From assembly GCA_964016885.1 (NCBI GenBank), contig OZ024740.1:138446001-138510000 (forward strand): DNA of 64,000 bases, in the 5' to 3' direction. The position numbers and the translations under genes are program-made. The stretch's first letter is position 1. Each line of letters opens with the position of its first letter. This stretch comes from Eledone cirrhosa. Taxonomy: Eukaryota. The notes under the pieces are model-generated. The model did no database searches, was not told the origin of the DNA, and was given only the letters and a program-made list of their open reading frames with translations. Below, piece after piece: positions 9,001 to 63,690 of this stretch.

Positions 9001-12000
9001 TTTTCCCCCAATCTCCAATTCTCTCTTTCTCTTATCACTTTTCTCTCAATCTCCAATTCTCTCTATCTCTTATCACTTTTCTCTCAATATCCAATTCTCT
9101 CTTTCTCTTATCACTTTTCTCTCAATCTCCAATTCTCTCTTTCTCTTATCACTTTTCCCCCCAATCTCCAATTCTCTCTCTCTCTTATCACTTTTCCCCC
9201 AAACTCCAATTCTCTCTTTCTCTTATCACTTTTCCCCCAATCTCCAATTCTCTCTTTCTCTTATCACTTTTCTCTCAATCTCCAATTCTCTCTTTCTCTT
9301 ATCACTTTTCCCCCAATCTCCAATTCTCTCTCTCTCTCTTATCACTTTCCCCCAATCTCCAATTATCTCATTCTCTTACCACTTTTCTCTCACTCTCCAA
9401 TTCTCTCTTTCTCTTATCACTTTTCTCTCAATCTCCAATTCTCTCTTTCTCTTATCACTTTTCTCTCAATCTCCAATTCTCTCTTTCTCTTATCACTTTT
9501 CTCTCAATCTCCAATTCTCTCTTTCTCTTATCATTTTCCCCCCAATCTCCAATTCTCTCTCTCTCTTATCACTTTTCCCCCAATCTCCAATTCTCTCTTT
9601 CTCTTATCACTTTTCTCTCAATCTCCAATTCTCTCTTTCTCTTATCACTTTTCTCTCAATCTCCAATTCTCTCTCTCTCTTATCACTTTTCCCCCAATCT
9701 CCAATTCTCTCTTTCTCTTATCACTTTTCTCTCAATCTCCAATTCTCTCTCTCTCTTATCACTTTTCCCCCAATCTCCAATTCTCTCTTTCTCTTATCAC
9801 TTTTCTCTTAATCTCCAATTCTCTCTTTCTCTTATCACTTTTCTCTCAATCTCCAATTCTCTCTTTCTCTTATCACTTTTCTCTCAATCTCCAATTCTCT
9901 CTTTCTCTTATCACTTTTCTCTCAATCTCCAATTCTCTCTCTCTCTTATCACTTTTCCCCCAATCTCCAATACTCTCTTTCAATTATCACTTTTCTCTCA
10001 ATCTCCAATTCTCTCTTTCTCTTATCACTTTTCTCTCAATCTCCAATTCTCTCTTTCTCTTATCACTTTTCTCTCAATCTCCAATTCTCTCTTTCTCTTA
10101 TCACTTTTCTCTCAATCTCCAATTCTCTCTTTCTCTTATCACTTTTCTCTCAATCTCCAATTCTCTCTTTCTCTTATCACTTTTCCCCCAATCTCCAATT
10201 CTCTCTCTCTCTTATCACTTTTCCCCAATCTCCAATTCTCTCATTCTCTTATCACTTTTCTCTCACTCTCCAATTCTCTCTTTCTCTTATCACTTTTCTC
10301 TCAATCTCCAATTCTCTCTTTCTCTTATCACTTTTCTCTCAATCTCCAATTCTCTCTTTCTCTTATCACTTTTCTCTCAATCTCCAATTCTCTCTTTCTC
10401 TTATCATTTTCCCCCCAATCTCCAATTCTCTCTCTCTTATCACTTTTCCCCCAATCTCCAATTCTCTCTTTCTCTTATCACTTTTCTCTCAATCTCCAAT
10501 TCTCTCTTTCTCTTATCACTTTTCTCTCAATCTCCAATTCTCTCTTTCTCTTATCACTTTTCTCTCAATCTCCAATTCTCTCTTTCTCTTATCACTTTTC
10601 TCTCAATCTCCAATTCTCTCTCTCTCTTATCACTTTTCTCTCAATCTCCAATTCTCTCTTTCTCTTATCACTTTTCTCTCAATCTCCAATTCTCTCTTTC
10701 TCTTATCACTTTTCCCCCAATCTCCAATTCTCTCTCTCTCTCTTATCACTTTTCCCCCAATCTCCAATTCTCTCATTCTCTTACCACTTTTCTCTCACTC
10801 TCCAATTCTCTCTTTCTCTTATCACTTTTCTCTCAATCTCCAATTCTCTCTTTCTCTTATCACTTTTCTCTCAATCTCCAATTCTCTCTTTCTCTTATCA
10901 CTTTTCTCTCAATCTCCAATTCTCTCTTTCTCTTATCACTTTTCTCTCAATCTCCAATTCTCTCTTTCTCTTATCATTTTCCCCCCAATCTCCAATTCTC
11001 TCTCTCTCTTATCACTTTTCCCCAATCTCCAATTCTCTCTTTCTCTTATCACTTTTCTCTCAATCTCCAATTCTCTCTTTCTCTTATCACTTTTCTCTCA
11101 ATCTCCAATTCTCTCTTTCTCTTATCACTTTTCTCTCAATCTCCAATTCTCTCTTTCTCTTATCACTTTTCTCTCAATCTCCAATTCTCTCTTTCTCTTA
11201 TCACTTTTCCCCCAATCTCCAATTCTCTCTCTCTCTTATCACTTTTCCCCAATCTCCAATTCTCTCATTCTCTTATCACTTTTCTCTCACTCTCCAATTC
11301 TCTCTTTCTCTTATCACTTTTCTCTCAATCTCCAATTCTCTCTTTCTCTTATCACTTTTCTCTCAATCTCCAATTCTCTCTTTCTCTTATCACTTTTCTC
11401 TCAATCTCCAATTCTCTCTTTCTCTTATCATTTTCCCCCCAATCTCCAATTCTCTCTCTCTCTTATCACTTTTCCCCCAATCTCCAATACTCTCTTTCTC
11501 TTATCACTTTTCTCTCAATCTCCAATTCTCTCTTTCTCTTATCACTTTTCTCTCAATCTCCAATTCTCTCTTTCTCTTATCACTTTTCTCTCAATCTCCA
11601 ATTCTCTCTTTCTCTTATCACTTTTCTCTCAATCTCCAATTCTCTCTCTCTCTTATCACTTTTCCCCCAATCTCCAATTCTCTCTCTCTCTTATCACTTT
11701 TCTCTCAATCTCCAATTCTCTCTCTCTCTTATCACTTTTCCCCCAATCTCCAATTCTCTCTTTCTCTTATCACTTTTCTCTCAATCTCCAATTCTCTCTC
11801 CTCTTATCACTTTTCCCCCAATCTCCAATTCTCTCTCTCTCTTATCACTTTTCCCCCAATCTCCAATTCTCTCTTTCTCTTATCACTTTTCTCTCAATCT
11901 CCAAATCTCTCTTTCTCTTATCACTTTTCCCCCAATCTCCAATTCTCCCTTTCTCTTATCACTTTTCTCTCAATCTCCAATTCTCTCTTTCTCTTATCAT

Positions 12001-15000
12001 TTTTCCCTCAATCTCCAATTCTCTCTTTCTCTTATCACTTTTCCCCCAATATCCAATTCTCTCATTCTCTTATCACTTTTCTCTCAATCTCCAATTCTCT
12101 CTTTCTCTTATCACTTTTCCCTCAATCTCCAATTCTCTCTTTCTCTTATCACTTTTCTCTCAATCTCCAATTCTCTCTTTCTCTTATCACTTTTCTCTCA
12201 ATCTCCAATTCTCTCTTTCTCTTATCACTTTTCTCTCAATCTCCAATTCTCTCTTCTCTTATCACTTTTCTCTCAATATCCAATTCTCTCTCTCTCTTAT
12301 CACTTTTCTCTCAATCTCCAATTCTCTCTCTCTCTTATCACTTTTCCCCAATCTCCAATTCTCTCTCTTATCACTTTTCCCCCAATCTCCAATTCTCTCT
12401 TTCTCTTATCACTTTTCTCTCAATCTCCAATTCTCTCTCTCTCTTATCACTTTTCCCCCAATCTCCAATTCTCTCTTTCTCTTATCACTTTTCTCTCAAT
12501 CTCCAATTCTCTCTCTCTCTCTTATCACTTTTCCCCCAATCTCCAATTCTCTCTTTCTCTCATCACTTTTCTCTCAATCTCCAATTCTCTCTTTCTCTTA
12601 TCACTTTTCTCTCAATCTCCAATTCTCACTGTTTCTTATCACTTTTCTCTCAATCTCCAATTCTCTCTTTCTCTTATCACTTTGCTCTCAATCTCCAATT
12701 CTCTCTTTCTCTTATCACTTTTCTCTCAATCTCCAATTCTCTCTCTCTCTTATCACTTTTCCCCCAATCTCCAATTCTCTCTCTCTCTTATCACTTTTCT
12801 CTCAATCTCCAATTCTCTCTTTCTCTTATCACTTTTCTCTCAATCTCCAATTCTCTCTTTCTCTTATCACTTTTCTCTCAATCTCCAATTCTCTCTGTTT
12901 CTTATCACTTTTCTCTCAATCTCCAATTCTCTCTTTCTCTTGTCACTTTTCTCTCAATCTCCAATTCTCTCTTTCTCTTATCACTTTTCTCTCAATCTCC
13001 AATTCTCTCTTTCTCTTATCACTTTTCTCTCAATCTCCAATTCTCTCTCTCTCTTATCACTTTTCTCTCAATCTCCAATTCTCTCTTTCTCTTATCATTT
13101 TCACCCCAATCTCCAATTCTCTCTCTCTCTTATCACTTTTCCCCCAATTTCCAATTCTCTCTTTCTCTTATCCCTTTTCTCTCAATCTCCAATTCACTCT
13201 TTCTCTTATCACTTTTCTCTCAATCTCCAATTCTCTCTTTCTCTTATCACTTTTCTCTCAATCTCCAATTCTCTCTTTCTCTTATCACTTTTCTCTCAAT
13301 CTCCAATTCTCTCTTTCTCTTATCACTTTTCCCCCAATCTCCAATTCTCTCTCTCTCTTATCACTTTTCCCCCAATCTCCAATTCTCTCATTCTCTTATC
13401 ACTTTTCTCTCACTCTCCAATTCTCTCTTTCTCTTATCACTTTTCTCTCAATCTCCAATTCTCTCTTTCTCTTATCACTTTTCTCTCAATCTCCAATTCT
13501 CTCTTTCTCTTATCATTTTCCCCCTAATCTCCAATTCTCTCTCTCTCTTATCACTTTTCCCCCAATCTCCAATTCTCTCTTTCTCTTATCACTTTTCTCT
13601 CAATCTCCAATTCTCTCTTTCTCTTATCACTTTTCTCTCAATCTCCAATTCTCTCTTTCTCTTATCACTTTTCTCTCAATCTCCAATTCTCTCTTTCTCT
13701 TATCACTTTTCTCTCAATCTCCAATTCTCTCTCTCTCTTATCACTTTTCTCTCAATCTCCAATTCTCTCTCTCTCTTATCACTTTTCTCTCAATCTCCAA
13801 TTCTCTCTCTCTCTTATCACCTTTCCCCCAATCTCCAATTCTCTCTCTCTCTTATCACTTTTCTCTCAATCTCCAATTCTCTCTTTCTCTTATCACTTTT
13901 CTCTCAATCTCCAATTCTCTCTTTCTCTTATCACTTTTCTCTCAATCTCCAATTCTCTCTTTCTCTTATCATTTTCCCCCCAATCTCCAATTCTCTCTCT
14001 CTCTTATCACTTTTCCCCCAATCTCCAATTCTCTCTTTCTCTTATCACTTTTCTCTCAATCTCCAATTCTCTCTCTCTCTTATCACTTTTCCCCCAATCT
14101 CCAATTCTCTCTTTCTCTTATCACTTTTCTCTTAATCTCCAATTCTCTCTTTCTCTTATCACTTTTCTCTCAATCTCCAATTCTCTCTTTCTCTTATCAC
14201 TTTTCTCTCAATCTCCAATTCTCTCTTTCTCTTATCACTTTTCTCTCAATCTCCAATTCTCTCTCTCTCTTATCACTTTTCCCACAATCTCCAATTCTCT
14301 CTCTCTCTTATCACTTTTCCCCCAATCTCCAATTCTCTCTTTCTCTTATCACTTTTCTCTCAATCTCCAAATCTCTCTTTCTCTTATCACTTTTCCCCCA
14401 ATCTCCAATCCTCTCTTTCTCTTATCACTTTTCTCTCAATCTCCAATTCTCTCTTTCTCTTATCATTTTTCCCTCAATCTCCAATTCTCTCTTTCTCTTA
14501 TCACTTTTCTCTCAATCTCCAATTCTCTCTTTCTCTTATCACTTTTCTCTCAATCTCCAATTCTCTCTTTCTCTTATCACTTTTCTCTCAATCTCCTATT
14601 CTCTCTTTCTCTTATCACTTTTCTCTCAATCTCCAATTCTCTCTTTCTCTTATCACTTTTCTCTCAATCTCCAATTCTCTCTTTCTCTTATCACTTTTCT
14701 CTCAATCTCCAATTCTCTCATTCTCTTATCACTTTTCCCCCAATCTCCAATTCTCTCTCTCTCTTATCACTTTTCCCCCAATCTCCAATTCTCTCTTTCT
14801 CTTATCACTTTTCTCTCAATCTCCAATTCTCTCTATCTCTTATCACTTTTCTCTCAATATCCAATTCTCTCTTTCTCTTATCACTTTTCTCTCAATCTCC
14901 AATTCTCTCTTTCTCTTATCACTTTTCCCCCCAATCTCCAATTCTCTCTCTCTCTTATCACTTTTCCCCCAAACTCCAATTCTCTCTTTCTCTTATCACT

Positions 15001-18000
15001 TTTCCCCCAATCTCCAATTCTCTCTTTCTCTTATCACTTTTCTCTCAATCTCCAATTCTCTCTTTCTCTTATCACTTTACCCCCAATCTCCAATTCTCTC
15101 TCTCTCTCTCTTATCACTTTCCCCCAATCTCCAATTATCTCATTCTCTTACCACTTTTCTCTCACTCTCCAATTCTCTCTTTCTCTTATCACTTTTCTCT
15201 CAATCTCCAATTCTCTCTTTCTCTTATCACTTTTCTCTCAATCTCCAATTCTCTCTTTCTCTTATCACTTTTCTCTCAATCTCCAATTCTCTCTTTCTCT
15301 TATCATTTTCCCCCCAATCTCCAATTCTCTCTCTCTCTTATCACTTTTCCCCCAATCTCCAATTCTCTCTTTCTCTTATCACTTTTCTCTCAATCTCCAA
15401 TTCTCTCTTTCTCTTATCACTTTTCTCTCAATCTCCAATTCACTCTCTCTCTTATCACTTTTCCCGCAATCTCCAATTCTCTCTCTCTCTTATCACTTTT
15501 CTCTCAATCTCCAATTCTCTCTCTCTCTTATCACTTTTCCCCCAATCTCCAATACTCTCTTTCAATTATCACTTTTCTCTCAATCTCCAATTCTCTCTTT
15601 CTCTTATCACTTTTCTCTCAATCTCCAATTCTCTCTTTCTCTTATCACTTTTCTCTCAATCTCCAATTCTCTCTTTCTCTTATCACTTTTCTCTCAATCT
15701 CCAATTCTCTCTTTCTCTTATCACTTTTCTCTCAATCTCCAATTCTCTCTTTCTCTTATCACTTTTCCCCCAATCTCCAATTCTCTCTCTCTCTTATCAC
15801 TTTTCCCCAATCTCCAATTCTCTCATTCTCTTATCACTTTTCTGTCACTCTCCAATTCTCTCTTTCTCTTATCACTTTTCTCTCAATCTCCAATTCTCTC
15901 TTTCTCTTATCACTTTTCTCTCAATCTCCAATTCTCTCTTTCTCTTATCACTTTTCTCTCAATCTCCAATTCTCTCTTTCTCTTATCATTTTCCCCCCAA
16001 TCTCCAATTCTCTCTCTCTCTTATCACTTTTCCCCCAATCTCCAATTCTCTCTTTCTCTTATCACTTTTCTCTCAATCTCCAATTCTCTCTTTCTCTTAT
16101 CACTTTTCTCTCAATCTCCAATTCTCTCTTTCTCTTATCACTTTTCTCTCAATCTCCAATTCTCTCTTTCTCTTATCACTTTTCTCTCAATCTCCAATTC
16201 TCTCTCTCTCTTATCACTTTTCTCTCAATCTCCAATTCTCTCTTTCTCTTATCACTTTTCTCTCAATCTCCAATTCTCTCTTTCTCTTATCACTTTTCCC
16301 CCAATCTCCAATTCTCTCTCTCTCTCTTATCACTTTTCCCCCAATCTCCAATTCTCTCATTCTCTTACCACTTTTCTCTCACTCTCCAATTCTCTCTTTC
16401 TCTTATCACTTTTCTCTCAATCTCCAATTCTCTCTTTCTCTTATCACTTTTCTCTCAATCTCCAATTCTCTCTTTCTCTTATCACTTTTCTCTCAATCTC
16501 CAATTCTCTCTTTCTCTTATCACTTTTCTCTCAATCTCCAATTCTCTCTTTCTCTTATCATTTTCCCCCCAATCTCCATTCTCTCTCTCTCTTATCACTT
16601 TTCCCCCAATCTCCAATTCTCTCTTTCTCTTATCACTTTCTCTCAATCTCCAATTCTCTCTTTCTCTTATCACTTTTCTCTCAATCTCCAATTCTCTCTT
16701 TCTCTTATCACTTTTCTCTCAATCTCCAATTCTCTCTTTCTCTTATCACTTTTCTCTCAATCTCCAATTCTCTCTTTCTCTTATCACTTTTCCCCCAATC
16801 TCCAATTCTCTCTCTCTCTTATCACTTTTCCCCAATACTCCAATTCTCTCATTCTCTTATCACTTTTCTCTCACTCTCCAATTCTCTCTTTCTCTTATCA
16901 CTTTTCTCTCAATCTCCAATTCTCTCTTTCTCTTATCACTTTTCTCTCAATCTCCAATTCTCTCTTTCTCTTATCACTTTTCTCTCAATCTCCAATTCTC
17001 TCTTTCTCTTATCATTTTCCCCCCAATCTCCAATTCTCTCTCTCTCTTATCACTTTTCCCCCAATCTCCAATACTCTCTTTCTCTTATCACTTTTCTCTC
17101 AATCTCCAATTCTCTCTTTCTCTTATCACTTTTCTCTCAATCTCCAATTCTCTCTTTCTCTTATCACTTTTCTCTCAATCTCCAATTCTCTCTTTCTCTT
17201 ATCACTTTTCTCTCAATCTCCAATTCTCTCTCTCTCTTATCACTTTTCCCCCAATCTCCATTCTCTCTCTCTCTTATCACTTTTCTCTCAATCTCCAATT
17301 CTCTCTCTCTCTTATCACTTTTCCCCCAATCTCCAATTCTCTCTTTCTCTTATCACTTTTCTCTCAATCTCCAATTCTCTCTCTCTCTTATCACTTTTCC
17401 CCCAATCTCCAATTCTCTCTCTCTCTTATCACTTTTCCCCCAATCTCCAATTCTCTCATTCTCTTATCACTTTTCTCTCACTCTCCAATTCTCTCTTTCT
17501 CTTATCACTTTTCTCTCAATCTCCAATTCTCTCTTTCTCTTATCACTTTCTCTCAATCTCCAATTCTCTCTTTCTCTTATCATTTTCCCCCTAATCTCCA
17601 ATTCTCTCTCTCTCTTATCACTTTTCCCCCAATCTCCAATTCTCTCTTTCTCTTATCACTTTTCTCTCAATCTCCAATTCTCTCTTTCTCTTATCACTTT
17701 TCTCTCAATCTCCAATTCTCTCTTTCTCTTATCACTTTTCTCTCAATCTCCAATTCTCTCTTTCTCTTATCACTTTCTCTCAATCTCCAATTCTCTCTCT
17801 CTCTTATCACTTTTCTCTCAATCTCCAATTCTCTCTCTCTCTTATCACTTTTCTCTCAATCTCCAATTCTCTCTCTCTCTTATCACCTTTCCCCCAATCT
17901 CCAATTCTCTCTCTCTCTTATCACTTTTCTCTCAATCTCCAATTCTCTCTTTCTCTTATCACTTTCTCTCAATCTCCAATTCTCTCTTTCTCTTATCACT

Positions 18001-19825
18001 TTTCTCTCAATCTCCAATTCTCTCTTTCTCTTATCATTTTCCCCCCAATCTCCAATTCTCTCTCTCTCTTATCACTTTTCCCCCAATCTCCAATTCTCTC
18101 TTTCTCTTATCACTTTTCTCTCAATCTCCAATTCTCTCTCTCTCTTATCACTTTTCCCCAATCTCCAATTCTCTCTTTCTCTTATCACTTTTCTCTTAAT
18201 CTCCAATTCTCTCTTTCTCTTATCACTTTTCTCTCAATCTCCAATTCTCTCTTTCTCTTATCACTTTTCTCTCAATCTCCAATTCTCTCTTTCTCTTATC
18301 ACTTTTCTCTCAATCTCCAATTCTCTCTCTCTCTTATCACTTTTCCCACAATCTCCAATTCTCTCTCTCTCTTATCACTTTTCCCCCAATCTCCAATTCT
18401 CTCTTTCTCTTATCACTTTTCTCTCAATCTCCAAATCTCTCTTTCTCTTATCACTTTTCCCCCAATCTCCAATCCTCTCTTTCTCTTATCACTTTTCTCT
18501 CAATCTCCAATTCTCTCTTTCTCTTATCATTTTTCCCTCAATCTCCAATTCTCTCTTTCTCTTATCACTTTTCTCTCAATCTCCAATTCTCTCTTCTCTT
18601 ATCACTTTTCTCTCAATCTCCAATTCTCTCTTTCTCTTATCACTTTTCTCTCAATCTCCTATTCTCTCTTTCTCTTATCACTTTTCTCTCAATCTCCAAT
18701 TCTCTCTTTCTCTTATCACTTTTCTCTCAATCTCCAATTCTCTCTTTCTCTTATCACTTTTCTCTCAATCTCCAATTCTCTCATCTCTTATCACTTTTCC
18801 CCCAATCTCCAATTCTCTCTCTCTCTTATCACTTTTCCCCCAATCTCCAATTCTCTCTTTCTCTTATCACTTTTCTCTCAATCTCCAATTCTCTCTATCT
18901 CTTATCACTTTTCTCTCAATATCCAATTCTCTCTTTCTCTTATCACTTTTCTCTCAATCTCCAATTCTCTCTTTCTCTTATCACTTTTCCCCCCAATCTC
19001 CAATTCTCTCTCTCTCTTTATCACTTTCCCCAAACTCCAATTCTCTCTTTCTTATCACTTTTCCCCCAATCTCCAATTCTCTCTTTCTCTTATCACTTTT
19101 CTCTCAATCTCCAATTCTCTCTTTCTCTTATCACTTTACCCCCAATCTCCAATTCTCTCTCTCTCTCTCTTATCACTTTCCCCCAATCTCCAATTATCTC
19201 ATTCTCTTACCACTTTTCTCTCACTCTCCAATTCTCTCTTCTCTTATCACTTTTCTCTCAATCTCCAATTCTCTCTTTCTCTTATCACTTTTCTCTCAAT
19301 CTCCAATTCTCTCTTTCTCTTATCACTTTTCTCTCAATCTCCAATTCTCTCTTTCTCTTATCATTTTCCCCCAATCTCCAATTCTCTCTCTCTCTTATCA
19401 CTTTTCCCCCAATCTCCAATTCTCTCTTTCTCTTATCACTTTTCTCTCAATCTCCAATTCTCTCTTTCTCTTATCACTTTTCTCTCAATCTCCAATTCAC
19501 TCTCTCTCTTATCACTTTTCCCGCAATCTCCAATTCTCTCTCTCTCTTATCACTTTTCTCTCATCTCCAATTCTCTCTCTCTCTTATCACTTTTCCCCAA
19601 TCTCCAATACTCTCTTTCAATTTATCACTTTCTCTCATCTCCAATTCTCTCTTTCTCTTATCACTTTTCTCTCAATCTCCAATTCTCTCTTTCTCTTATC
19701 ACTTTTCTCTCAATCTCCAATTCTCTCTTCTCTTATCACTTTTCTCTCAATCTCCAATTCTCTCTTTCTCTTATCACTTTTCTCTCAGTGCTCCAGATTT
19801 CTCTCTTTCTCTTTATCACTTTTCC
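1..19825 (+). repeat. 38-bp satellite array (satellite A), block 1
   Basis: Monomer ATCTCCAATTCTCTCTTTCTCTTATCACTTTTCTCTCA repeats every 38 nt (units start at 1, 39, ...). Common variants are TTTTCCCCCAA vs TTTTCTCTCAA and TCTCTCTCT vs TCTTTCTCT. The + strand is almost G-free. Indels increase towards the gap. Confidence 0.98.
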
Positions 19826-20025
19826 NNNNNNNNNNNNNNNNNNNNNNNNNNNNNNNNNNNNNNNNNNNNNNNNNNNNNNNNNNNNNNNNNNNNNNNNNNN
19901 NNNNNNNNNNNNNNNNNNNNNNNNNNNNNNNNNNNNNNNNNNNNNNNNNNNNNNNNNNNNNNNNNNNNNNNNNNNNNNNNNNNNNNNNNNNNNNNNNNNN
20001 NNNNNNNNNNNNNNNNNNNNNNNNN
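19826..20025. other. Assembly gap (200 N)
   Basis: Run of 200 N; the round number suggests a scaffolding placeholder of unknown true size. Confidence 0.99.
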
Positions 20026-21060
20026 GAGAATTGGATATTGAGAGAAAAGTGATAAGAGAAAGAGAGAATTGGAGATTGAGAGAAAAGTGATAAGAGAAAG
20101 AGAGAATTGGAGATTGGGGGAAAAGTGATAAGAGAGAGAGAGAATTGGAGATTGGGGGGAAAAGTGATAAGAGAATGAGAGAATTGGAGATTGAGAGAAA
20201 AGTGATAAGAGAAAGAGAGAATTGGAGTTTGAGAGAAAAGTGATAAGAGAAAGAGAGAATTGGAGATTGAGAGAAAAGTGATAAGAGAAAGAGAGAATTG
20301 GAGATTGAGAGAAAAGTGATAAGAGAAAGAGAGAATTGGAGATTGAGGGAAAAAGTGATAAGAGAAAGAGAGAATTGGAGATTGAGAGAAAAGTGATAAG
20401 AGAAAGAGAGAATTGGAGATTGGGGGAAAAGTGATAAGAGAAAGAGAGATTTGGAGATTGAGAGAAAAGTGATAAGTGAAAGAGAGAATTGGAGATTGGG
20501 GGAAAAGTGATAAGAGAGAGAGAGAATTGGAGATTGGGGGAAAAGTGATAAGAGAGAGAGAGAATTGGAGATTGAGAGAAAAGTGATAAGAGAAAGAGAG
20601 AATTGGAGATTGGGGGAAAAGTGATAAGAGAGAGAGAGAATTGGAGATTGAGAGAAAAGTGATAAGAGAGAGAGAGAATTGAGATTGGGGGGAAAAGTGA
20701 TAAGAGAAAGAGAGAATTGGAGATTGAGAGAAAAGTGATAAGAGAAAGAGAGAATTGGAGATTGAGAGAAAAGTGATAAGAGAAAGAGAGAATTGGAGAT
20801 TGAGAGAAAAGTGATAAGAAGACAGAGAGAATTGGAGATTGAGAGAAAAGTGATAAGAGAAAGAGAGAATTGGAGATTGAGAGAAAAGTGATAAGAGAGA
20901 AGAGAGAAGTTGGAGATTGAGAGAAAAGTGATAAGAGAAAGAGAGAATTGGAGATTGAGAGAAAAGTGATAGAGAAGAGAGAGAATTGGAGATGTGGGAA
21001 AAGTGATAAGAGAGAGAGAGAATTGGAGATTGGGAGGAAAAGTGATAGAGAGAGAGAGTC
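20026..21060 (-). repeat. Satellite A in inverted orientation (mirror copy of ~32,640-33,673)
   Basis: GAGAATTGGAGATTGAGAGAAAAGTGATAAGAGAAAGA is the reverse complement of the monomer. Rare variants at ~20,033, 20,171, 20,225 and 20,471 match variants at ~33,660, 33,521, 33,471 and 33,221 in mirror order. Confidence 0.93.
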
Positions 21061-21159
21061 AATTTGGCCCCTGAGCACCTCTAGAGAAAGAGTGAATTGG
21101 AGATTGAGATGCAAAGTCTTCTTAGAGAATTGTCTAGTCACAGCTCCCTCTCTTCCAAT

Positions 21160-24100
21160 TCTCAGATCTCTGCCCCTATCACCTCTCCCTCTCTCCAATG
21201 TCGCAGATTCTCCCTATCACCTCTCCTCTCTCCAAGTGTTCTCAATCGCTCCCCTATCACCTCTCCCTCTCTGCCAATTCTCAATCTCTCTCCCTATCAC
21301 CTCTCCCTCGCTCCAATTCAAATTTTCCCCTATCACCTCTCTCTCTCTCCAATTCTCAGATGTTTCCCCGATCACCTCTCTCTCTCCAAGTCTCAATCTC
21401 TCCCCTATCACCTCTCCCTCTCTCCAATTCTCAATGTTCCCCTTCACCGCTCTCTCTCTCCAATTCTCAATCTCTCGCCCTATCACCTCTCCGCTCTCTC
21501 CAATTCTCAATTTTCCCCTATCACCACTCTCGCTCTCCAATTCTCAATTTTCCCCTATCACCTCTCTCTTTCTCTCCAATTCTCAATCTCTCCCCTATCA
21601 CCTCTCTCTCTCTCCAATTAACAATCTCTCCCCTATCACCTCTCCCTCTCTCCAATTCTCAATCTCTCCCCTATCACCTCTCCCTCTCTCCAATTCTCAA
21701 TCTCTCCCCTATCACCTCTCCCTCTCTCCAATTCTCAATCTCTCCCCTATCACCTCTCCCTCTCTCCAATTCTCAATCTTTCCCCTATCACCTCTCCCTC
21801 TCTCCAATTCTCAATCTCTCCCCTATCACCTCTCCCTCTCTCCAATTCTCAATTCTTCCCCTATCACCTCTCCCTCTCTCAAATTCTCAATCTCTCCCCT
21901 ATCACCTCTCCCTCTCTCCAATTCTCAATTTTTCCCCTATCACCTCTCTCTCTCTCCAATCTCAATTTTTCCCCTATCACCTCTCTCTCTCTCCAATTCT
22001 CTATCTCTCCCCTATCACCTCTCCCTCTCTCCAATTCGTCAATCTTTCCCCCATCACCTCTCCCTCTCTCCAATTCTCAATCTCTCCCCCATCACCTCTC
22101 CCTCTCTCCAATTCTCAATTTTTCCCCTATCACCTCTCTCTCTCTCCAACTCTCAATTTTTCCCCTGATCACCTCTCTCTCTCTCCAATTCTCAATCTCT
22201 CCCCTATCACCTCTCCCTCTCTCCAATTCTCAATCTTTCCCCCATCACCTCTCCCTCTCTCCAATTCTCAATTCTCTCCCCTATCACCTCTCCCTCTCTC
22301 CAATTCTCAATCTCTCCCCTATCACCTCTCCCTCTCTCCAATTCTCAATCTCTCCCCTATCACCTCTCCCTCTCTCCAATTCTCAATCTTTCCCCTATCA
22401 CCTCTCCCTCTCTCCAATTCTCAATCTCTCCCCTATCACCTCTCCCTCTCTCCAATTCTCAATTTTTCCCCTATCACCTCTCCCTCTCTCAAATTTCTCA
22501 ATCTCTCCCCTATTACCTCTCCCTCTCTCCAATTCTCAATTTTTCCCCTATCACCTCTCTCTCTCTCCAATTCTCAATTTATCCCCTATCACCTCTCTCT
22601 CTCTCCAATTCTCAATCTCTCCCCTATCACCTCTCTCTCTCTCCAATTCTCAATCTCTCCCCTATCACCTCTCCCTCTCTCCAATTCTCAATCTCTCCCC
22701 TATCACCTCTCCCTCTCTCCAATTCTCAATTTTTCCCCTATCACCTCTCTCTCTCTCCAATTCTAAATTTTTCCCCTATCACCTCTCCCTCTCTCCAATT
22801 CTCAATCTCTCCCCTATCACCTCTCCCTATTCTCCAATTCACAATTTTTCCCCTATCACCTCTCTCTCTCTCCAATTCTCAATTTTTTTCCCCTATCACC
22901 TCTCCCTCGCTCCAATTCTCAATCTCTCCCCTATCACCTCTCCCTCTCTCCAATTCACAATCTCTCCCCTATCACCTCTCCCTCTCTCCAATTCTCAATC
23001 TCTCCCCTATCACCTCTCCCTCTCTCCAATTCTCAATTTTTCCCCTATCACCTCTCTCTCTCTCCAATTCTCAATTTTTCCCCTATCACCCCTCCCTCTC
23101 TCCAATTCTCAATCTCTCCCCTATCACCTCTCCCTCTCTCCAATTCTCAATCTCTCCCCTATCACCTCTCCCTCTCTCCAATTCTCAATCTCTCCCCTAT
23201 CACCTCTCCCTCTCTCCAATTCTCAATCTCTCCCCTATCACCTCTCCCTCTCTCCAATTCTCAATCTCTCCCCTATCACCTCTCCCTCTCTCCAATTCTC
23301 AATCTCTCCCCTATCACCTCTCCCTCTCTCCAATTCTCAATTTGTCCCCTATCACCTCTCTCTCTCTCCAATTCTCAATTTTTCCCCTATCACCTCTCTC
23401 TCTCTCCAATTCTCAATCTCTCCCCTATCACCTCTCCCTCTCTCCAATTCTCAATTTTTCCCCTATCACCTCTCTCTCTCTCCAATTCTCAATCTCTCCC
23501 CTATCACCTCTCTCTCTCTCCAATTCTCAATTTTTCCCCTATCACCTCTCTCTCTCTCCAATTCTCAATCTCTCCCCTATCACCTCTCCCTCTCTCCAAT
23601 TCTCAATTTTTCCCCTATCACCTCTCTCTCTCTCCAATTCTCAATCTCTCCCCTATCACCTCTCTCTCTCTCCAATTCTCAATTTTCCCCTATCACCTCT
23701 CTCTCTCTCCAATTCTCAATCTCTCCCCTATCACCTCTCCCTCTCTCCAATTCTCAATCTCTCCCCTATCACCTCTCCCTCTCTCCAATTCTCAATCTCT
23801 CCCCTATCACCTCTCCCTCTCTCCAATTCTCAATCTCTCCCCTATCACCTCTCCCTCTCTCCAATTCTCAATTTTTCCCCTATCACCTCTCTCTCTCTCC
23901 AATTCTCAATTTTTTCCCCATCACCTCTCCCTCTCTCCAATTCTCAATCTCTCCCCTATCACCTCTCCCTCTCTCCAATTCTCAATCTCTCCCCTATCAC
24001 CTCTCCCTCTCTCCAATTCTCAATCTCTCCCCTATCACCTCTCCCTCTCTCCAATTCTCTATCTCTCCCCTATCACCTCTCCATCTCTCCAATTCTCAAT

Positions 24101-26836
24101 TTTTCCCCTATCACCTCTCTCTCTCTCTCCAATTCTCAATTTTTCCCCTATCACCTCTCCCTCTCTCCAATTCTCAATCTCTCCCCTATCACCTCTCCCT
24201 CTCTCCAATTTCTCAATTTTTCCCCTATCACCTCTCCCTCTCTCCAATTCTCAATTCTTCCCCTATCACCTCTCCCTCTCTCAAATTCTCAATCTCTCCC
24301 CTATCACCTCTCCCTCTCTCCAATTCTCAATTTTTCCCCTATCACCTCTCTCTCTCTCCAATTCTCAATTTTTCCCCTATCACCTCTCTCTCTCTCCAAT
24401 TCTCAATCTCTCCCCTATCACCTCTCCCTCTCTCCAATTCTCAATCTTTCCCCCATCACCTCTCCCTCTCTCCAATTCTCAATCTCTCCCCCATCACCTC
24501 TCCCTCTCTCCAATTCTCAATTTTTCCCCTATCACCTCTCTCTCTCTCCAACTCTCAATTTTTCCCCTATCACCTCTCTTCTCTCTCCAATTCTCAATCT
24601 CTCCCCTATCACCTCTCCCTCTCTCCAATTCTCAATCTTTCCCCCATCACCTCTCCCTCTCTCCAATTCTCAATCTCTCCCCTATCACCTCTCCCTCTCT
24701 CCAATTCTCAATCTCTCCCCTATCACCTCTCCCTCTCTCCAATTCTCAATCTCTCCCCTATCACCTCTCCCTCTCTCCAATTCTCAATCTTTCCCCTATC
24801 ACCTCTCCCTCTCTCCAATTCTCAATCTCTCCCCTATCACCTCTCCCTCTCTCCAATTCTCAATTTTTCCCCTATCACCTCTCCCTCTCTCAAATTCTCA
24901 ATCTCTCCCCTATTACCTCTCCCTCTCTCCAATTCTCAATTTTTCCCCTATCACCTCTCTCTCTCTCCAATTCTCAATTTATCCCCTATCACCTCTCTCT
25001 CTCTCCAATTCTCAATCTCTCCCCTATCACCTCTCTCTCTCTCCAATTCTCAATCTCTCCCCTATCACCTCTCCCTCTCTCCAATTCTCAATCTCTCCCC
25101 TATCACCTCTCCCTCTCTCCAATTCTCAATTTTCCCCTATCACCTCTCTCTCTCTCCAATTCTAAATTTTTCCCCTATCACCTCTCCCTCTCTCCAATTC
25201 TCAATCTCTCCCCTATCACCTCTCCCTATCTCCAATTCACAATTTTTCCCCTATCACCTCTCTCTCTCTCCAATTCTCAATTTTTTTCCCCTATCACCTC
25301 TCCCTCTCTCCAATTCTCAATCTCTCCCCTATCACCTCTCCCTCTCTCCAATTCACAATCTCTCCCCTATCACCTCTCCCTTCTCTCCAATTCTCAATCT
25401 CTCCCCTATCACCTCTCCCTCTCTCCAATTCTCAATTTTTCCCCTATCACCTCTCTCTCTCTCCAATTCTCAATTTTTCCCCTATCACCCCTCCCTCTCT
25501 CCAATTCTCAATCTCTCCCCTATCACCTCTCCCTCTCTCCAATTCTCAATCTCTCCCCTATCACCTCTCCCTCTCTCCAATTCTCAATCTCTCCCCTATC
25601 ACCTCTCCCTCTCTCCAATTCTCAATCTCTCCCCTATCACCTCTCCCTCTCTCCAATTCTCAATCTCTCCCCTATCACCTCTCCCTCTCTCCAATTCTCA
25701 ATCTCTCCCCTATCACCTCTCCCTCTCTCCAATTCTCAATTTTTCCCCTATCACCTCTCTCTCTCTCCAATTTCTCAATTTTTCCCCTATCACCTCTCTC
25801 TCTCTCCAATTCTCAATCTCTCCCCTATCACCTCTCCCTCTCTCCAATTCTCAATTTTTCCCCTATCACCTCTCTCTCTCTCCAATTCTCAATCTCTCCC
25901 CTATCACCTCTCTCTCTCTCCAATTCTCAATTTTGCCCCTATCACCTCTCTCTCTCTCCAATTCTCAATCTCTCCCCTATCACCTCTCCCTCTCTCCAAT
26001 TCTCAATTTTTCCCCTATCACCTCTCTCTCTCTCCAATTCTCAATCTCTCCCCTATCACCTCTCTCTCTCTCCAATTCTCAATTTTTCCCCTATCACCTC
26101 TCTCTCTCTCCAATTCTCAATCTCTCCCCTATCACCTCTCCCTCTCTCCAATTCTCAATCTCTCCCCTATCACCTCTCCCTCTCTCCAATTCTCAATCTC
26201 TCCCCTATCACCTCTCCCTCTCTCCAATTCTCAATCTCTCCCCTATCACCTCTCCCTCTCTCCAATTCTCAATTTTTCCCCTATCACCTCTCTCTCTCTC
26301 CAATTCTCAATTTTTTCCCCATCACCTCTCCCTCTCTCCAATTCTCAATCTCTCCCCTATCACCTCTCCCTCTCTCCAATTCTCAATCTCTCCCCTATCA
26401 CCTCTCCCTCTCTCCAATTCTCAATCTCTCCCCTATCACCTCTCCCTCTCTCCAATTCTCTATCTCTCCCCTATCACCTCTCCATCTCTCCAATTCTCAA
26501 TTTTTCCCCTATCACCTCTCTCTCTCTCTCCAATTCTCAATTTTTCCCCTATCACCTCTCCCTCTCTCCAATTCTCAATCTCTCCCCTATCACCTCTCCC
26601 TCTCTCCAATTCTCAATTTTTCCCCTATCACCTCTCCCTCTCTCCAATTCTAATTTTTCCCCTATCACCTCTCTCTCTCTCCAATTCTCAATGTTTTCCC
26701 CTATCACCTCTCCCTCTCTCCAATTCTCAATTCTCTCCCCTATCACCTCTCCCTCTCTCCAATTCACAATCTCTCCCCTATCACCTCTCCCTCTCTCCAA
26801 TTCTCAATCTCTCCCCTATCACCTCTCCCTCTCTCC
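21160..26836. repeat. Apparent second 38-bp satellite (B) = letter-substituted reverse complement of satellite A; probable base-calling artefact
   Basis: Unit TCTCCAATTCTC-AATCTCTCCCC-TATCAC-CTCTCCCTC equals revcomp(A) GAGAATTGGAGA-TTGAGAGAAAA-GTGATA-AGAGAAAGA under G>T, A>C, T>A at all 38 positions. Noisy transition at ~21,040-21,600. Confidence 0.9.
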
Positions 26837-26890
26837 ACCACTCACCTCCTCCCCCCCCCCCCCCTTCTTTCTTCTTCCCCTACATCTACA
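26837..26890 (+). other. Probable PacBio SMRTbell hairpin adapter, letter-substituted
   Basis: Observed C14 (26,851-26,864), TTCTTTCTTCTT, CCCC. The adapter ATCTCTCTC-AACAACAACAAC-GGAGGAGGAGG-AAAA-GAGAGAGAT under G>T,T>A,A>C,C>C gives CACACACAC-C12-TTCTTCTTCTT-CCCC-TCTCTCTCA. It lies at the centre of the mirror symmetry; the flanks match only loosely. Confidence 0.8.
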
Positions 26891-27960
26891 CTCTACAACA
26901 CACTAACACATACACCCAAAACACACCCACACCCCAACACACAAACACAACACCCAAAACACACCCACACCCCAACACACAAACACAACACCCAAAACAC
27001 ACCCACACCCCAACACACAAACACAACACCCAAAACCCCCCCCACACCCCAACACACACACACAACACCCAAAACCCCCCCCCACCCCAACACACAAACA
27101 CAACACCCAAAACCCCCCACACCCCAACACACAAACACAACACCCAAAACACACCCACACCCCAACACACAAACACAACACCCAAAACCCCCCACACCCC
27201 AACACACACTCACAACACCCAAAACCCCCCACACCCCAACACACCAACACAACACCCAAAACACACCCACACCCCAACACACAAACACAACACCCAAAAC
27301 ACACCACACCCAAACACACAATCACAACACCCAAAACACACCACACCCCAACACACAAACACAACACCCAAAACACACCCACACCCCAACACACAAACAC
27401 TACACCAAAACCCCCCCACACCCCATCACACACACACAACACCCAAAACCCCCCACTCCCCAACACTCAACTCACACCCAAATCACACCCACACCCAACA
27501 CTCCAACACAACTCCCAAAACCACCCACACCCATACACACAAACACAACACCCATAACACACCCACACCCCTTCACACTAACACAACACCCAAAACACAC
27601 CCACTCCCATCACTCACACACAACTCCCAATACCCCCACACCCCATCTCACTCACACAACACCTTATCACACAATCTCCCAATCACACTCACTCACAACA
27701 CTCTAACACTCCCACACCCCAACACACTAACACTACACCCAATACTCTCAACTCCCAATCTCACTCACTCTACTCCCTAATACCCCCCAACTCCCATCTC
27801 ACACACTCATCTCACTATACACTCCAATCTCCCTACTCTCTCACTCATCACCCATTTCCCCCACACTCCATTCTCTCAACTCTACTCTCTATACTCTCCA
27901 CTCCATCACTCTCTCTCAACACCTATCCCCCCACTCCTCACTCTCACTCTTACACACTAT
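26891..27960. repeat. Apparent A/C-only 38-bp repeat (C) = letter-substituted forward satellite A, grading back into A
   Basis: Unit ACACAAACAC-AACACCCAAA-ACACACCCAC-ACCCCAAC equals TCTCTTTCTC-TTATCACTTT-TCTCTCAATC-TCCAATTC under T>A, A>C, C>C. T reappears progressively from ~27,450 to ~28,100. Confidence 0.88.
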
Positions 27961-30900
27961 TCCCCCAAATCTCCAATTCTCTCTTTCTCTTATCACTTCT
28001 CAATCTCCAATCTCACTTTCTCTTATCACTTTCTCTCAATCTCCAATTCTCTCTCTTCTCTATCACTTTCTCTCAATCTCCAATTCTCTCTTCTCTTATC
28101 ACTATTCTCTCAATCTCCAATTCTCTCTTTCTCTTATCACTTTTCTCTCAATCTCCAATTCTCTCTTTCTCTTATCACTTTTCTCTCAATCTCCAATTCT
28201 CTCTTTCTGTTATCACTTTTCCCCAATCTCCAATTCTCTCTCTCTCTTATCACTTTTCCCCCAATCTCCAATTCTCTCTTTCTCTTATCACTTTTCTCTC
28301 AATCTCCAATTCTCTCTTTCTCTTATCACTTTTCTCTCAATATCCAATTCTCTCTTTCTCTTATCACTTTTCTCTCAATCTCCAATTCTCTCTTTCTCTT
28401 ATCACTTTTCCCCCCCAATCTCCAATTCTCTCTCTCTCTTATCACTTTTCCCCCAATATCCAATTCTCACTTTCTCTTATCACTTTTCTCTCAATCTCCA
28501 ATTCTCTCTTTCTCTTATCACTTTTCCCCCAAACTCCAATTCTCTCTCTCTCTTATCACTTTTCCCCCAATCTCCAATTCTCTCTTTCTCTTATCACTTT
28601 TCTCTCAATCTCCAATTCTCTCTTTCTCTTATCACTTTTCTCTCAATCTCCAATTCTCTCTCTCTCTTATCACTTTTCTCTCAATCTCCAATTCTCTCTC
28701 TCTCTTATCACTTTTCACCCAATCTCCAATTCTCTCTCTCTCTTATCACTTTTCCCCCAATCTCCAATTCTCTCTTTCTCTTACCACTTTTCTCTCAATC
28801 TCCAAATCTCTCTTTCTCTTATCACTTTGCCCCCAATCTCCAATTCTCTCTTTCTCTTATCACTTTTCTCTCAATCTCCAATTCTCTCTTTCTCTTATCA
28901 CTTTTCCCTCAATCTCCAATTCTCTCTTTCTCTTATCACTTTTCTCTCAATCTCCAATTCTCTCTTTCTCTTATCACTTTTCTCTCAATCTCCAATTCTC
29001 TCTTTCTCTTATCACTTTTCTCTCAATCTCCAATTCTCTCTTTCTCTTATCATTTTTCCCTCAATCTCCAATTCTCTCTTTCTCTTATCACTTTTCTCTC
29101 AATCTCCAATTCTCTCTCTCTCTTATCACTTTTCCCCAATCTCGAATTCTCTCTCTCTCTTATCACTTTTCCCCCAATCTCCAATTCTCTCTTTCTCTTA
29201 TCAGTTTTCTCTCAATCTCCAATTCTCTCTTTCTCTTATCATTTTTCCCTCAATCTCCAATTCTCTCTTTCTCTTATCACTTTTCTCTCAATCTCCAATT
29301 CTCTCTCTCTCTTATCACTTTTCCCCCAATCTCCAATTCTCTCTCTCTCTTATCACTTTTCCCCCAATCTCCAATTCTCTCTTTCTCTTATCACTTTTCT
29401 CTCAATCTCCAAATCTCTCTTTCTCGTATCACTTTTCCGCCAATCTCCAATTCTCTCTTTCTCTTATCACTTTTCCCCCAATCTCCAATTCTCTCTTTCT
29501 CTTATCACTTTTCTCTCAATCTCCAATTCTCTCTTTCTCTTATCACTTTTCCCCAATCTCCAATTCTCTCTCTCTCTCTTATCACTTTTCCCCCAATCTC
29601 CATTCTCTCATTCTCTTATCACTTTTCTCTCACTCTCCAATTCTCTCTTTCTCTTATCACTTTTCTCTCAATCTCCAATTCTCTCTTTCTCTTATCACTT
29701 TTCTCTCAATCTCCAATTCTCTCTTTCTCTTATCACTTTTCTCTCAATCTCCAATTCTCTCTTTCTCTTATCATTTTCCCCCCAATCTCCAATTCTCTCT
29801 CTCTCTTATCACTTTTCCCCAATCTCCAATTCTCTCTTTCTCTTATCACTTTTCTCTCAATCTCCAATTCTCTCTTTCTCTTATCACTTTTCTCTCAATC
29901 TCCAATTCTCTCTTTCTCTTATCACTTTTCTCTCAATCTCCAATTCTCTCTTTCTCTTATCACTTTTCTCTCAATCTCCAATTCTCTCTCTCTCTTATCA
30001 CTTTTCCCCCAATCTCCAATTCTCTCTCTCTCTTATCACTTTTCTCTCAATCTCCAATTCTCTCTCTCTCTTATCACTTTTCCCCCAATCTCCAATTCTC
30101 TCTTTCTCTTATCACTTTTCTCTCAATCTCCAATTCTCTCTCTCTCTTATCACTTTTCCCCCAATCTCCAATTCTCTCTCTCTCTTATCACTTTTCTCTC
30201 AATCTCCAATTCTCTCTCTCTCTTATCACTTTTCCCCAATCTCCAATTCTCTCTTTCTCTTATCACTTTTCTCTCAATCTCCAATTCTCTCTCTCTCTTA
30301 TCACTTTTCCCCCAATCTCCAATTCTCTCTCTCTCTTATCACTTTTCCCCCAATCTCCAATTCTCTCTTTCTCTTATCACTTTTCTCTCAATCTCCAATT
30401 CTCTCTTTCTCTTATCACTTTTCTCTCAATCTCCAATTCTCTCTTTCTCTTATCACTTTTCTCTCAATCTCCAATTCTCTCTTTCTCTTATCACTTTTCT
30501 CTCAATCTCCAATTCTCTCTTTCTCTTATCACTTTTCTCTCAATCTCCAATTCTCTCTTTCTCTTATCACTTTTCTCTCAATCTCCAATTCTCTCTTTCT
30601 GTTATCACTTTTCCCCCAATCTCCAATTCTCTCTCTCTCTTATCACTTTTCCCCCAATCTCCAATTCTCTCTTTCTCTTATCACTTTTCTCTCAATCTCC
30701 AATTCTCTCTTTCTCTTATCACTTTTCTCTCAATATCCAATTCTCTCTTTCTCTTATCACTTTTCTCTCAATCTCCAATTCTCTCTTTCTCTTATCACTT
30801 TTCCCCCCCAATCTCCAATTCTCTCTCTCTCTTATCACTTTTCCCCCAATATCCAATTCTCACTTTCTCTTATCACTTTTCTCTCAATCTCCAATTCTCT

Positions 30901-33900
30901 CTTTCTCTTATCACTTTTCCCCCAAACTCCAATTCTCTCTCTCTCTTATCACTTTTCCCCAATCTCCAATTCTCTCTTTCTCTTATCACTTTTCTCTCAA
31001 TCTCCAATTCTCTCTTTCTCTTATCACTTTTCTCTCAATCTCCAATTCTCTCTCTCTCTTATCACTTTTCTCTCAATCTCCAATTCTCTCTCTCTCTTAT
31101 CACTTTTCACCCAATCTCCAATTCTCTCTCTCTCTTATCACTTTTCCCCCAATCTCCAATTCTCTCTTTCTCTTACCACTTTTCTCTCAATCTCCAAATC
31201 TCTCTTTCTCTTATCACTTTGCCCCCAATCTCCAATTCTCTCTTTCTCTTATCACTTTTCTCTCAATCTCCAATTCTCTCTTTCTCTTATCACTTTTCCC
31301 TCAATCTCCAATTCTCTCTTTCTCTTATCACTTTTCTCTCAATCTCCAATTCTCTCTTTCTCTTATCACTTTTCTCTCAATCTCCAATTCTCTCTTTCTC
31401 TTATCACTTTTCTCTCAATCTCCAATTCTCTCTTTCTCTTATCATTTTTCCCTCAATCTCCAATTCTCTCTTTCTCTTATCACTTTTCTCTCAATCTCCA
31501 ATTCTCTCTCTCTCTTATCACTTTTCCCCCAATCTCGAATTCTCTCTCTCTCTTATCACTTTTCCCCCAATCTCCAATTCTCTCTTTCTCTTATCAGTTT
31601 TCTCTCAATCTCCAATTCTCTCTTTCTCTTATCATTTTTCCCTCAATCTCCAATTCTCTCTTTCTCTTATCACTTTTCTCTCAATCTCCAATTCTCTCTC
31701 TCTCTTATCACTTTTCCCCCAATCTCCAATTCTCTCTCTCTCTTATCACTTTTCCCCCAATCTCCAATTCTCTCTTTCTCTTATCACTTTTCTCTCAATC
31801 TCCAAATCTCTCTTTCTCGTATCACTTTTCCGCCAATCTCCAATTCTCTCTTTCTCTTATCACTTTTCTCTCAATCTCCAATTCTCTCTTTCTCTTATCA
31901 CTTTTCCCTCAATCTCCAATTCTCTCTTTCTCTTATCACTTTTCTCTCAATCTCCAATTCTCTCTTTCTCTTATCACTTTTCTCTCAATCTCCAATTCTC
32001 TCTTTCTCTTATCACTTTTCTCTCAATCTCCAATTCTCTCTTTCTCTTATCACTTTTCTCTCAATAACCAATTCTCTCTCTCTCTTATCACTTTTCTCTC
32101 AATCTCCAATTCTCTCCCTCTCTCTTATCACTTTTCCCCCAATCTCCAATTCTCTCTCTCTATTATCACTTTTCCCCAATCTCCAATTCTCTCTTTCTCT
32201 TATCACTTTTCTCTCAATCTCCAATTCTCTCTCTCTCTTATCACTTTTCCCCCAATCTCCAATTCTCTCTTTCTCTTATCACTTTTCTCTCAATCTCCAA
32301 TTCTCTCTCTCTCTTATCACTTTTCCCCCAATCTCCAATTCTCTCTCTCTCTTATCACTTTTCCCCCAAACTCCAATTCTCTCTTTCTCTTATCACTTTT
32401 CTCTCAATCTCCAATTCTCTCTTTCTCTTATCACTTTTCTCTCAATCTCCAATTCTCTCTTTCTCTTATCACTTTTCTCTCAATCTCCAATTCTCTCTTT
32501 CTCTTATCACTTTTCTCTCAATCTCCAATTCACTCTTTCTCTTATCACTTTTCTCTCAATCTCCAATTCTCTCTCTCTCTTATCACTTTTCCCCCAATCT
32601 CCAATTCTCTCTCTCTCTTATCACTTTTCCCCCAATCTTCAATTCTCTCTGTTTCTTATCCCTTTTCTCTCAATCTCCAATTCTCTCTTTCTCTTATCAT
32701 TTTTCTCTCAATCTCCAATTCTCTCTGTTTCTTATCACTTTTCTCTCAATCTCCAATTCTCTCTTTCTCTTATCACTTTTCCCCCAATCTCCAATTCTCT
32801 CTTTCTCTTATCACTTTTCTCTCAATCTCCAATTCTCTCTTTCTCTTATCACTTTTCTCTCAATCTCCAATTCTCTCTGTTTCTTATCACTTTTCTCTCA
32901 ATCTCCAATTCTCTCTTTCTCTTATCACTTTTCTCTCAATCTCCAATTCTCTCTTTCTCTTATCACTTTTCTCTCAATCTCCAATTCTCTCTTTCTCTTA
33001 TCATTTTCCCCCCAATCTCCAATTCTCTCTCTCTCTTATCACTTTTCTCTCAATCTCCAATTCTCTCTCTCTCTTATCACTTTTCCCCCAATCTCCAATT
33101 CTCTCTTTCTCTTATCACTTTTCTCTCAATCTCCAATTCTCTCTCTCTCTTATCACTTTTCCCCCAATCTCCAATTCTCTCTCTCTCTTATCACTTTTCC
33201 CCCAATCTCCAATTCTCTCTTTCACTTATCACTTTTCTCTCAATCTCCAAATCTCTCTTTCTCTTATCACTTTTCCCCCAATCTCCAATTCTCTCTTTCT
33301 CTTATCACTTTTCTCTCAATCTCCAATTCTCTCTTTCTCTTATCATTTTTCCCTCAATCTCCAATTCTCTCTTTCTCTTATCACTTTTCTCTCAATCTCC
33401 AATTCTCTCTTTCTCTTATCACTTTTCTCTCAATCTCCAATTCTCTCTTTCTCTTATCACTTTTCTCTCAAACTCCAATTCTCTCTTTCTCTTATCACTT
33501 TTCTCTCAATCTCCAATTCTCTCATTCTCTTATCACTTTTCCCCCAATCTCCAATTCTCTCTCTCTCTTATCACTTTTCCCCCAATCTCCAATTCTCTCT
33601 TTCTCTTATCACTTTTCTCTCAATCTCCAATTCTCTCTTTCTCTTATCACTTTTCTCTCAATATCCAATTCTCTCTTTCTCTTATCACTTTTCTCTCAAT
33701 CTCCAATTCTCTCTTTCTCTTATCACTTTTCCCCCAATCTCCAATTCTCTCTCTCTCTTATCACTTTTCCCCCAAACTCCAATTCTCTCTTTCTCTTATC
33801 ACTTTTCCCCCAATCTCCAATTCTCTCTTTCTCTTATCACTTTTCTCTCAATCTCCAATTCTCTCTTTCTCTTATCACTTTTCCCCCAATCTCCAATTCT

Positions 33901-36900: not shown

Positions 36901-37109
36901 CAATTCTCTCTTTCTCTTATCATTTTTCTCTCAATCTCCAATTCTCTCTGTTTCTTATCACTTTTCTCTCAATCTCCAATTCTCTCTTTCTCTTATCACT
37001 TTTCTCTCAATCTCCAATTCTCTCTTTCTCTTATCACTTTTCTCTCAATCTCCAATTCTCTCTTTCTCTTATCACTTTTCTCTCAATTTCCAACTCTCTC
37101 TTTCTCTTA
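27961..37109 (+). repeat. 38-bp satellite array (satellite A), block 2
   Basis: Same monomer and orientation as block 1. Internal ~2,392-bp duplication (TTTGCCCCC at ~28,827 and ~31,219; TACCAC at 28,782 and 31,174). Ends abruptly at ...TTTCTCTTA 37,109. Confidence 0.97.
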
Positions 37110-59937: not shown

Positions 59938-60237
59938 ATTGATGTTATTCAAAGAATAAAAAAATTAATAATAATAATGATAATAATAATAATGTTTACT
60001 TTATTAACCACAAGGGTTTACATAAAGTAGACATTAAGGACAGTACAGGACAATACAGGACGGTACAAATGGGCATTTCTGCGTGTAAAAAAAACGGAGG
60101 TTGAAATAAAATAACAAAGAAAAATTCCCCAACAGGGGGGAGACTTCCGAGGGACATTTGTGGAGAAAGCCCATTAAAAGACCACAGTGGCCCTGACCAC
60201 CAGGGCAAGTGCCCTCTCCCAGTTTTCCACCTTTAAT

Positions 60238-63656: not shown

Positions 63657-63690
63657 GTTGAAAAGGAGTGGAAAAGATGGGAAAGACCAC

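Follow-up and report, generated by a model that had tools for sequence, protein, structure and literature searches.

The window analyzed here, 64,000 nucleotides of Eledone cirrhosa DNA (assembly GCA_964016885.1, contig OZ024740.1, positions 138,446,001 to 138,510,000 of the forward strand), holds a real satellite, A, and, beyond a scaffold gap, two further repeats, B and C (Table 1). The array of A left of the gap has 25 G in 19,825 nt, and the real A array right of the fold described below ends at 37,109. In the 3.0-Gb assembly, exact A monomers occur 8,253 times in the forward orientation and 11 times in reverse. A genome-wide search placed all 11 reversed copies in the arm at 20,026-21,040.

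Table 1. Features of the locus, in window coordinates. The terms phantom and artifactual are used with the near certainty argued in the text.
Feature	Position	Strand	Remarks
Satellite A, real, 38-bp	1-19,825	+	C/T-rich forward strand, opposite strand almost C-free; TRF period 38
Scaffold gap, 200 N	19,826-20,025		the artifactual read is the start of the next contig
First fold-back arm, reverse complement of A, correctly called	20,026-21,040	-	1 C in 1,014 nt
Fade-in	21,040-21,600	+	three substitutions increase jointly over ~500 nt; noisy, inserted G
Phantom satellite B	21,600-26,837	+	cipher G>T, T>A, A>C, C>C applied to the reverse strand of A
PacBio hairpin adapter in cipher, fold axis	26,838-26,895	+	core at 26,852-26,881; noisy stems
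Phantom satellite C	26,896-27,450	+	same cipher applied to forward A; the molecule's return strand
Fade-out to correctly called A	27,450-28,100	+	from letter-share bins
Second fold-back arm, correctly called A	28,100-33,672	+	mirror centre from rare 60-mers; array onward to 37,109

Several features of the surroundings are recorded for completeness. On C1, exact A monomers run on one strand from about 137.0 Mb, the first among the matches listed, to 138.48 Mb. The sequence 10-20 kb upstream of the window (L022) has 10% G, so the A array is interrupted there. Inside the real array, a higher-order unit of about 2.4 kb (about 63 monomers) has been duplicated recently, and its copies at 28,150-29,450 and 30,543-31,843 agree in 1,299 of 1,299 aligned columns. 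At the other end of the window, positions 60,001-64,000 have a G+C content of 50-58%, against about 30-38% in most other non-satellite sequence, and are possibly a CpG island or the start of a gene.

The relation of B and C to A was examined with every one of the 256 possible letter maps, each applied to either strand (512 combinations), using the 770 frequent 20-mers of A. Four combinations explain B (90.4% of its 20-mers). They use the minus strand with A>C, G>T and T>A, and leave C free. Four explain C (76.1% of its 20-mers), using the plus strand with A>C, C>C and T>A and leaving G free. Only G>T, T>A, A>C, C>C belongs to both groups of four. With the letters left as they are (identity map), 0% of the 20-mers of either repeat are explained. 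An earlier note on this DNA had claimed that this one map yields B from the reverse complement of A and C from forward A; among the 512 combinations it is unique in doing so. The four commonest variants of A are also the four commonest of B, in similar proportions.

Under this map each letter moves one step along the series G>T>A>C, and C, at the top, stays C; a monotone shift with saturation of this kind is expected if signal levels were mis-scaled. Where B is aligned with its mirror, the rare C of the template are read as C at 12 of 12 sites. This is in line with a saturated top level and rules out a plain rotation of the alphabet. Such a rotation by one letter (A>C, C>G, G>T, T>A), introduced by an encoding error or other software fault during assembly or polishing, would account for B well: its three substitutions coincide with a +1 rotation of ACGT, and the rotation map ranks top for B by a hair. 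However, for block C it predicts G at 36.7% and C at 16.2%, where saturation predicts 0% and 52.8%, and the observed values are 0% and 52.1%. The gradual changes at the edges, over 500-700 nt, are also ill-suited to a digital slip. C>C refutes the rotation, and we leave it practically no probability.

Those edges are where the mapping fades in and out, and the earlier note placed them correctly at 21,040-21,600 and 27,450-28,100. In the fade-in the shifted share of G is 0/36 in the bin at 20,900 and 7/35 at 21,000, followed by 24/37, 29/34, 35/39, 33/35, 38/39 and, at 21,600, 34/34. For T in the fade-out it is 49/50 at 27,300, followed by 38/44, 44/52, 29/46, 26/44, 19/47 and 13/45, then 2/48 at 28,000 and 0/49 at 28,200. 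The alignment used for these shares accepts either letter, and the template of the fade-out was decoded from B. Seven of the nine letters inserted at 21,200-21,600 are G, which is no more than suggestive of a vacated dimmest class; the excess of inserted G, 9/24, is not significant against 25% (p = 0.12).

B, C and the correctly called A on either side form one fold-back of 13.6 kb, 20,026-33,672, beginning at the contig start. It is larger than the feature described in the earlier note, which had missed both the fold-back and the adapter at the junction of B and C. Among the matches of rare 60-mers of B, 859 of 2,144 fall on a mirror centre at 26,840-26,850, and for the kilobase of reversed A 164 of the 213 matches listed fall on an axis near 26,850. 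Side peaks for B at 28,040 and 25,650 lie where the 2.4-kb duplication of the array would put them. The duplication itself is carried into the ciphered mirror, with B 21,830-24,230 matching 24,232-26,630 in 2,390 of 2,394 columns. An origin of B in the array left of the gap is ruled out, since that array shows no dominant diagonal, with at most 53 of 330 matches on any one.

Alignment across the axis agrees with this geometry. The clean part of B (21,600-25,550) matches the ciphered reverse complement of its mirror in 3,933 of 3,936 columns, with 18 gap openings per 3,951 nt, and private or rare variants of the array are preserved through the cipher into B. Eight distant control mirror centres gave 85.1-96.5% match; the other four of the 12 controls slid back to the true diagonal and are not independent. 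The first arm matches its mirror in 998 of 1,007 columns, the first pair being 20,027/33,672. C matches the sequence predicted from the mirrored tail of B in 583 of 592 columns, with a score of 1,045.5; none of 30 other stretches of B scores above 987.5. The last position of B is 26,837 and the first of C is 26,896, and the two repeats flank the junction in mirror register. Once the cipher is applied, the two arms are thus reverse-complementary about a single axis, as in a fold-back read at a missed adapter.

The axis itself carries such an adapter. The PacBio adapter sequence, as printed (10.1101/2024.06.21.600153), has a loop of (AAC)4, (GGA)3GG and AAAA. The cipher turns this loop into a C-run, (TTC)3TT and CCCC, which are present at 26,852-26,881. 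The ciphered core matches in 29 of 30 columns (adapter positions 9-37, score 54). Elsewhere the ciphered adapter scores 11.8 on average and 31 at best away from the junction (1,956 tiles, both strands), and none of 2,000 shuffles reaches 54 (maximum 50). At the fold, the plain adapter scores 20, as does the adapter reverse-complemented and then ciphered, so the match is to the read orientation and in cipher, the arrangement expected of a missed-adapter read; the stems are noisy. Two maps without T>A slightly outscore the full cipher at the junction (58 vs 54), and the adapter therefore serves as a test of three rules, A>C, C>C and G>T, with T>A outside its reach. The ciphered junction motif has a single match in the 3.0-Gb assembly, here, in a search for the exact pattern that noisier copies would escape. 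A synthetic oligonucleotide placed where a perfect mirror folds cannot have come from the genome. With the plain adapter at a chance-level score, a filter of the HiFiAdapterFilt type would pass it.

The distribution of B and C in the assembly is equally narrow. The B monomer has 66 exact matches in the 3.0-Gb assembly, all in this block (the first at 21,402) and all on the plus strand, with none in reverse. The C monomer has five genome-wide, likewise all in this block on the plus strand with none in reverse. Both repeats show the strand skew that Carvalho et al. use as a criterion (66/0 and 5/0; 10.64898/2026.07.13.738322), the counts coming from a single block and not being independent. A genuine satellite would form arrays independent of the mirror of another satellite; B and C form one block, which the mirror of A explains.

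The earlier note had asked for B and C to be counted in Illumina reads. Three Illumina RAD runs carrying the same species label were aligned to 20,860-21,400; no run was listed as containing 24,000-30,000. Over A the depth reaches several hundred to about 1,000, and over B it stays below 1. The comparison agrees with an artifact but has low power, given reduced-representation libraries, a noisy copy of B (about 87-92% clean) and reads that mostly lie only partly on A. A real single 6-kb array of B would be expected at only about 1% of the depth of A. A is thus covered and the B side lies below 1x, but as a test of B the result is weak. The RAD reads aligned on A lie only partly on it in 96-97% of cases. 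At 20,910-20,949 the same 96-97% run on into unlike, mostly AT-rich sequence, and from these reads leaving A it seems that a monomer-sized A-like motif is dispersed outside the arrays.

The low power of the RAD data leaves some room for B and C as real DNA, a genuine inverted duplication in which the satellite was recoded by an unknown process, and B is very clean and carries both the variants of the array and its 2.4-kb higher-order duplication. Against this stands the adapter, a synthetic oligonucleotide from library preparation that lies exactly at the fold, ciphered like the repeats around it and oriented as in the read. The same map also applies to both strands in the direction of the read, where changes in DNA would be complementary, and the block is unique, sits at a contig end beside the gap and holds the only reversed A in the genome. 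To our knowledge, no templated polymerase or editing enzyme makes such a map. We consider real DNA as improbable an origin as the alphabet rotation. That B and C are not real genomic features is, in our judgment, as good as certain, and we have hardly more doubt that their source is a PacBio read folded back where an adapter was missed. The earlier note had read the block as an artifact of the PacBio platform, a reading now supported by the fold-back of one molecule with an adapter core in the same cipher at the fold. The true locus is likely plain continuous forward A, with about 6.9 kb of spurious sequence (20,026-26,884) and another 1.2 kb miscalled.

We also searched for the ciphered junction motif in public sequence collections. 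There were no matches in prokaryote genomes or viral contigs and four in metagenome contigs (L017, L018, L019 and L020), one of which, L018, we count as support. L018 is an unrelated and noisy fold-back, its arms at 225-2,350 and 2,872-5,020 agreeing at 80.8% over 2,234 columns, in which the adapter is read with A>C and G>T and with T unchanged (43 of 45 columns). Away from the fold, differences between the arms of the A>C/G>T type number 62, against 10 in the reverse direction. L018 supports, independently, the pairings G<T and A<C but not T<A. Its shift, of the A>C/G>T type, would fit an older two-colour design. The stretch L018:225-5020 resembles a raw long read folded at a miscalled adapter, and is an unflagged 'contig' in the collection. 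L020 has an adapter match of the A>C/G>T type in 36 of 37 columns with only a weak local inversion, and L017 an adapter-like match without inversion. Both (L020:1-5089 and L017:1-5822) have the look of junk reads: they contain long runs of purines or pyrimidines, and their adapter-like cores follow the A>C/G>T spelling. L019 resembles ordinary DNA and is probably a chance match.

What produced the shift is less firmly established than the fold-back. The most likely cause, which we hold with considerable confidence, is a one-level rescaling of brightness by the base-caller on a C-free strand. This cause requires that pulse brightness, in the Sequel II generation, follow the presumed order G<T<A<C. 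No statement of this order was found in the searched literature, which included few subscription papers and vendor documents, and the accessible text on DeepConsensus has four per-base signal-to-noise values and no brightness order. Of the one-level amplitude shift put forward in the earlier note, the monotone map and the saturation at C>C are in its favor, while the shift itself and the order G<T<A<C are what we infer.

The course of the read can be followed in steps. The contig opens with the purine strand of A, correctly called for about 1 kb, after which calling drifts to G>T, T>A and A>C and gives B. Without C pulses, the caller may have treated A as the brightest base and moved all bases up one level of G<T<A<C, with C saturating. 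The core of the hairpin adapter is then read in the cipher and, so disguised, may have gone unrecognized, leaving the read unsplit. On the return along the complementary strand, calling is at first still shifted, giving C, and recovers 0.55-1.2 kb later. Were the shift repeated on each pass round the circle, the consensus would keep the cipher, about 99.5% accurate and noisy only toward its edges, and the ciphered read would have been taken by the assembler as a contig end. The onset of the shift, about 1 kb into C-free sequence, and its decay after C returns have the direction expected of the proposed cause. Gap openings are few here, 18 in 3,951 nt, where the arms of the raw-read-like L018 show 142 in 1,623 aligned nt. 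This low rate suggests a consensus built from several passes, and the noisy edges fit that too.

The same kind of folded PacBio read could also have acquired its shift without the absence of C playing a part, through a physical drift of gain in the well or another fault of the caller that happened to fall on this molecule. L018, where a shift of the dim-to-bright type appears at the adapter in four-letter DNA, speaks for such a drift and indicates that a missing base is not required for shifts, though it is the likely trigger here. So does the finding of one such block in an assembly with more than 8,000 exact A monomers. Against drift, the onset comes after about 1 kb of C-free sequence and the recovery after the return of C, and a B that is nearly free of errors implies the same shift on repeated passes. 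In addition, a comparable artifact described by Flynn et al. is found at 98% on the C-free strand (10.1101/693077). We therefore regard gain drift or another caller fault as improbable, and rescaling on a C-free strand remains the cause we favor.

That comparable artifact is an AAACGAC satellite in PacBio reads of Drosophila virilis, which Flynn et al. found at 98% on one strand, put down to base calling and describe as removed by HiFi (10.1101/693077). By our own reading of their monomers, it amounts to A>C on a C-free strand. Like B, it is a PacBio-only, strand-specific phantom counterpart of a real satellite with A>C in C-free sequence. Unlike here, it involves one substitution rather than three, in raw single-pass reads, and the accessible text of that paper has no fold-back, adapter or level-shift model (10.1101/693077). 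The ciphered read at the present locus, in contrast, seems to be of consensus grade and became part of an assembly.

Nanopore data, too, are known to yield strand-specific phantom repeats, some of which end up in assemblies; they are recognized by their strand skew and by being missing from Illumina reads (PMC9414165; 10.64898/2026.07.13.738322). Tan et al. reported nanopore repeat-calling errors at telomeres and none in HiFi (PMC9414165), and Carvalho et al. describe ONT as 'uniquely prone' to satellite miscalls (10.64898/2026.07.13.738322). The cause given there is similar current profiles of k-mers, and those errors, unlike the present one, do not follow a letter-for-letter cipher as far as the accessible texts describe them (PMC9414165; 10.64898/2026.07.13.738322). 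The present case is a PacBio counter-example to the 'uniquely prone' statement (10.64898/2026.07.13.738322). As far as their accessible texts go, the papers of Flynn, Tan and Carvalho regard such miscalls as a fault of nanopore sequencing or as one that HiFi has resolved. Quality drops in satellites have been reported as well (10.1101/2025.02.23.639762). The searched literature, with few subscription papers and vendor documents, yielded no description of a three-step cipher and, among the papers listed, nothing evidently relevant on a ciphered telomere repeat with PacBio.

Adapters are known to enter assemblies, and HiFiAdapterFilt removes those with at least 97% identity over 44/45 bases under VecScreen-like BLAST settings (PMC8864876). 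Like the cases treated there, the present one has an internal PacBio adapter that survives in the read and a mis-joined contig (PMC8864876). It adds that an apparently consensus-grade PacBio read can carry a full cipher and hide its adapter from identity-based filters. The cipher offers a cheap screen, a search for the ciphered adapter together with a ciphered mirror. The earlier note had suggested that three-letter satellites could seed phantom families in public assemblies; this is shown here for one locus.

The cipher also allows a direct test of the part that base composition plays in HiFi dropouts at AG-rich satellites, which have been assigned to triplex DNA and not to composition (PMC9414165; 10.64898/2026.07.13.738322). 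A composition-triggered one-level shift may recur in current PacBio calling on any long C-free strand, disguising the adapter so that the molecules either fail consensus or emerge as accurate palindromes; we put this forward tentatively and think it rather unlikely. If true, it would explain part of the HiFi coverage loss at AG-rich and other C-free satellites that is now put down to triplex DNA. Public assemblies would then also hold phantom satellites and false inversions that are predictable and decodable, and invisible to adapter screens.

At this locus, a ciphered read gave a chromosome-scale assembly two new repeat families and an inverted duplication of 6.9 kb. For the biology of Eledone cirrhosa this means nothing new: B and C are not to be annotated as satellites, and the inversion is false.
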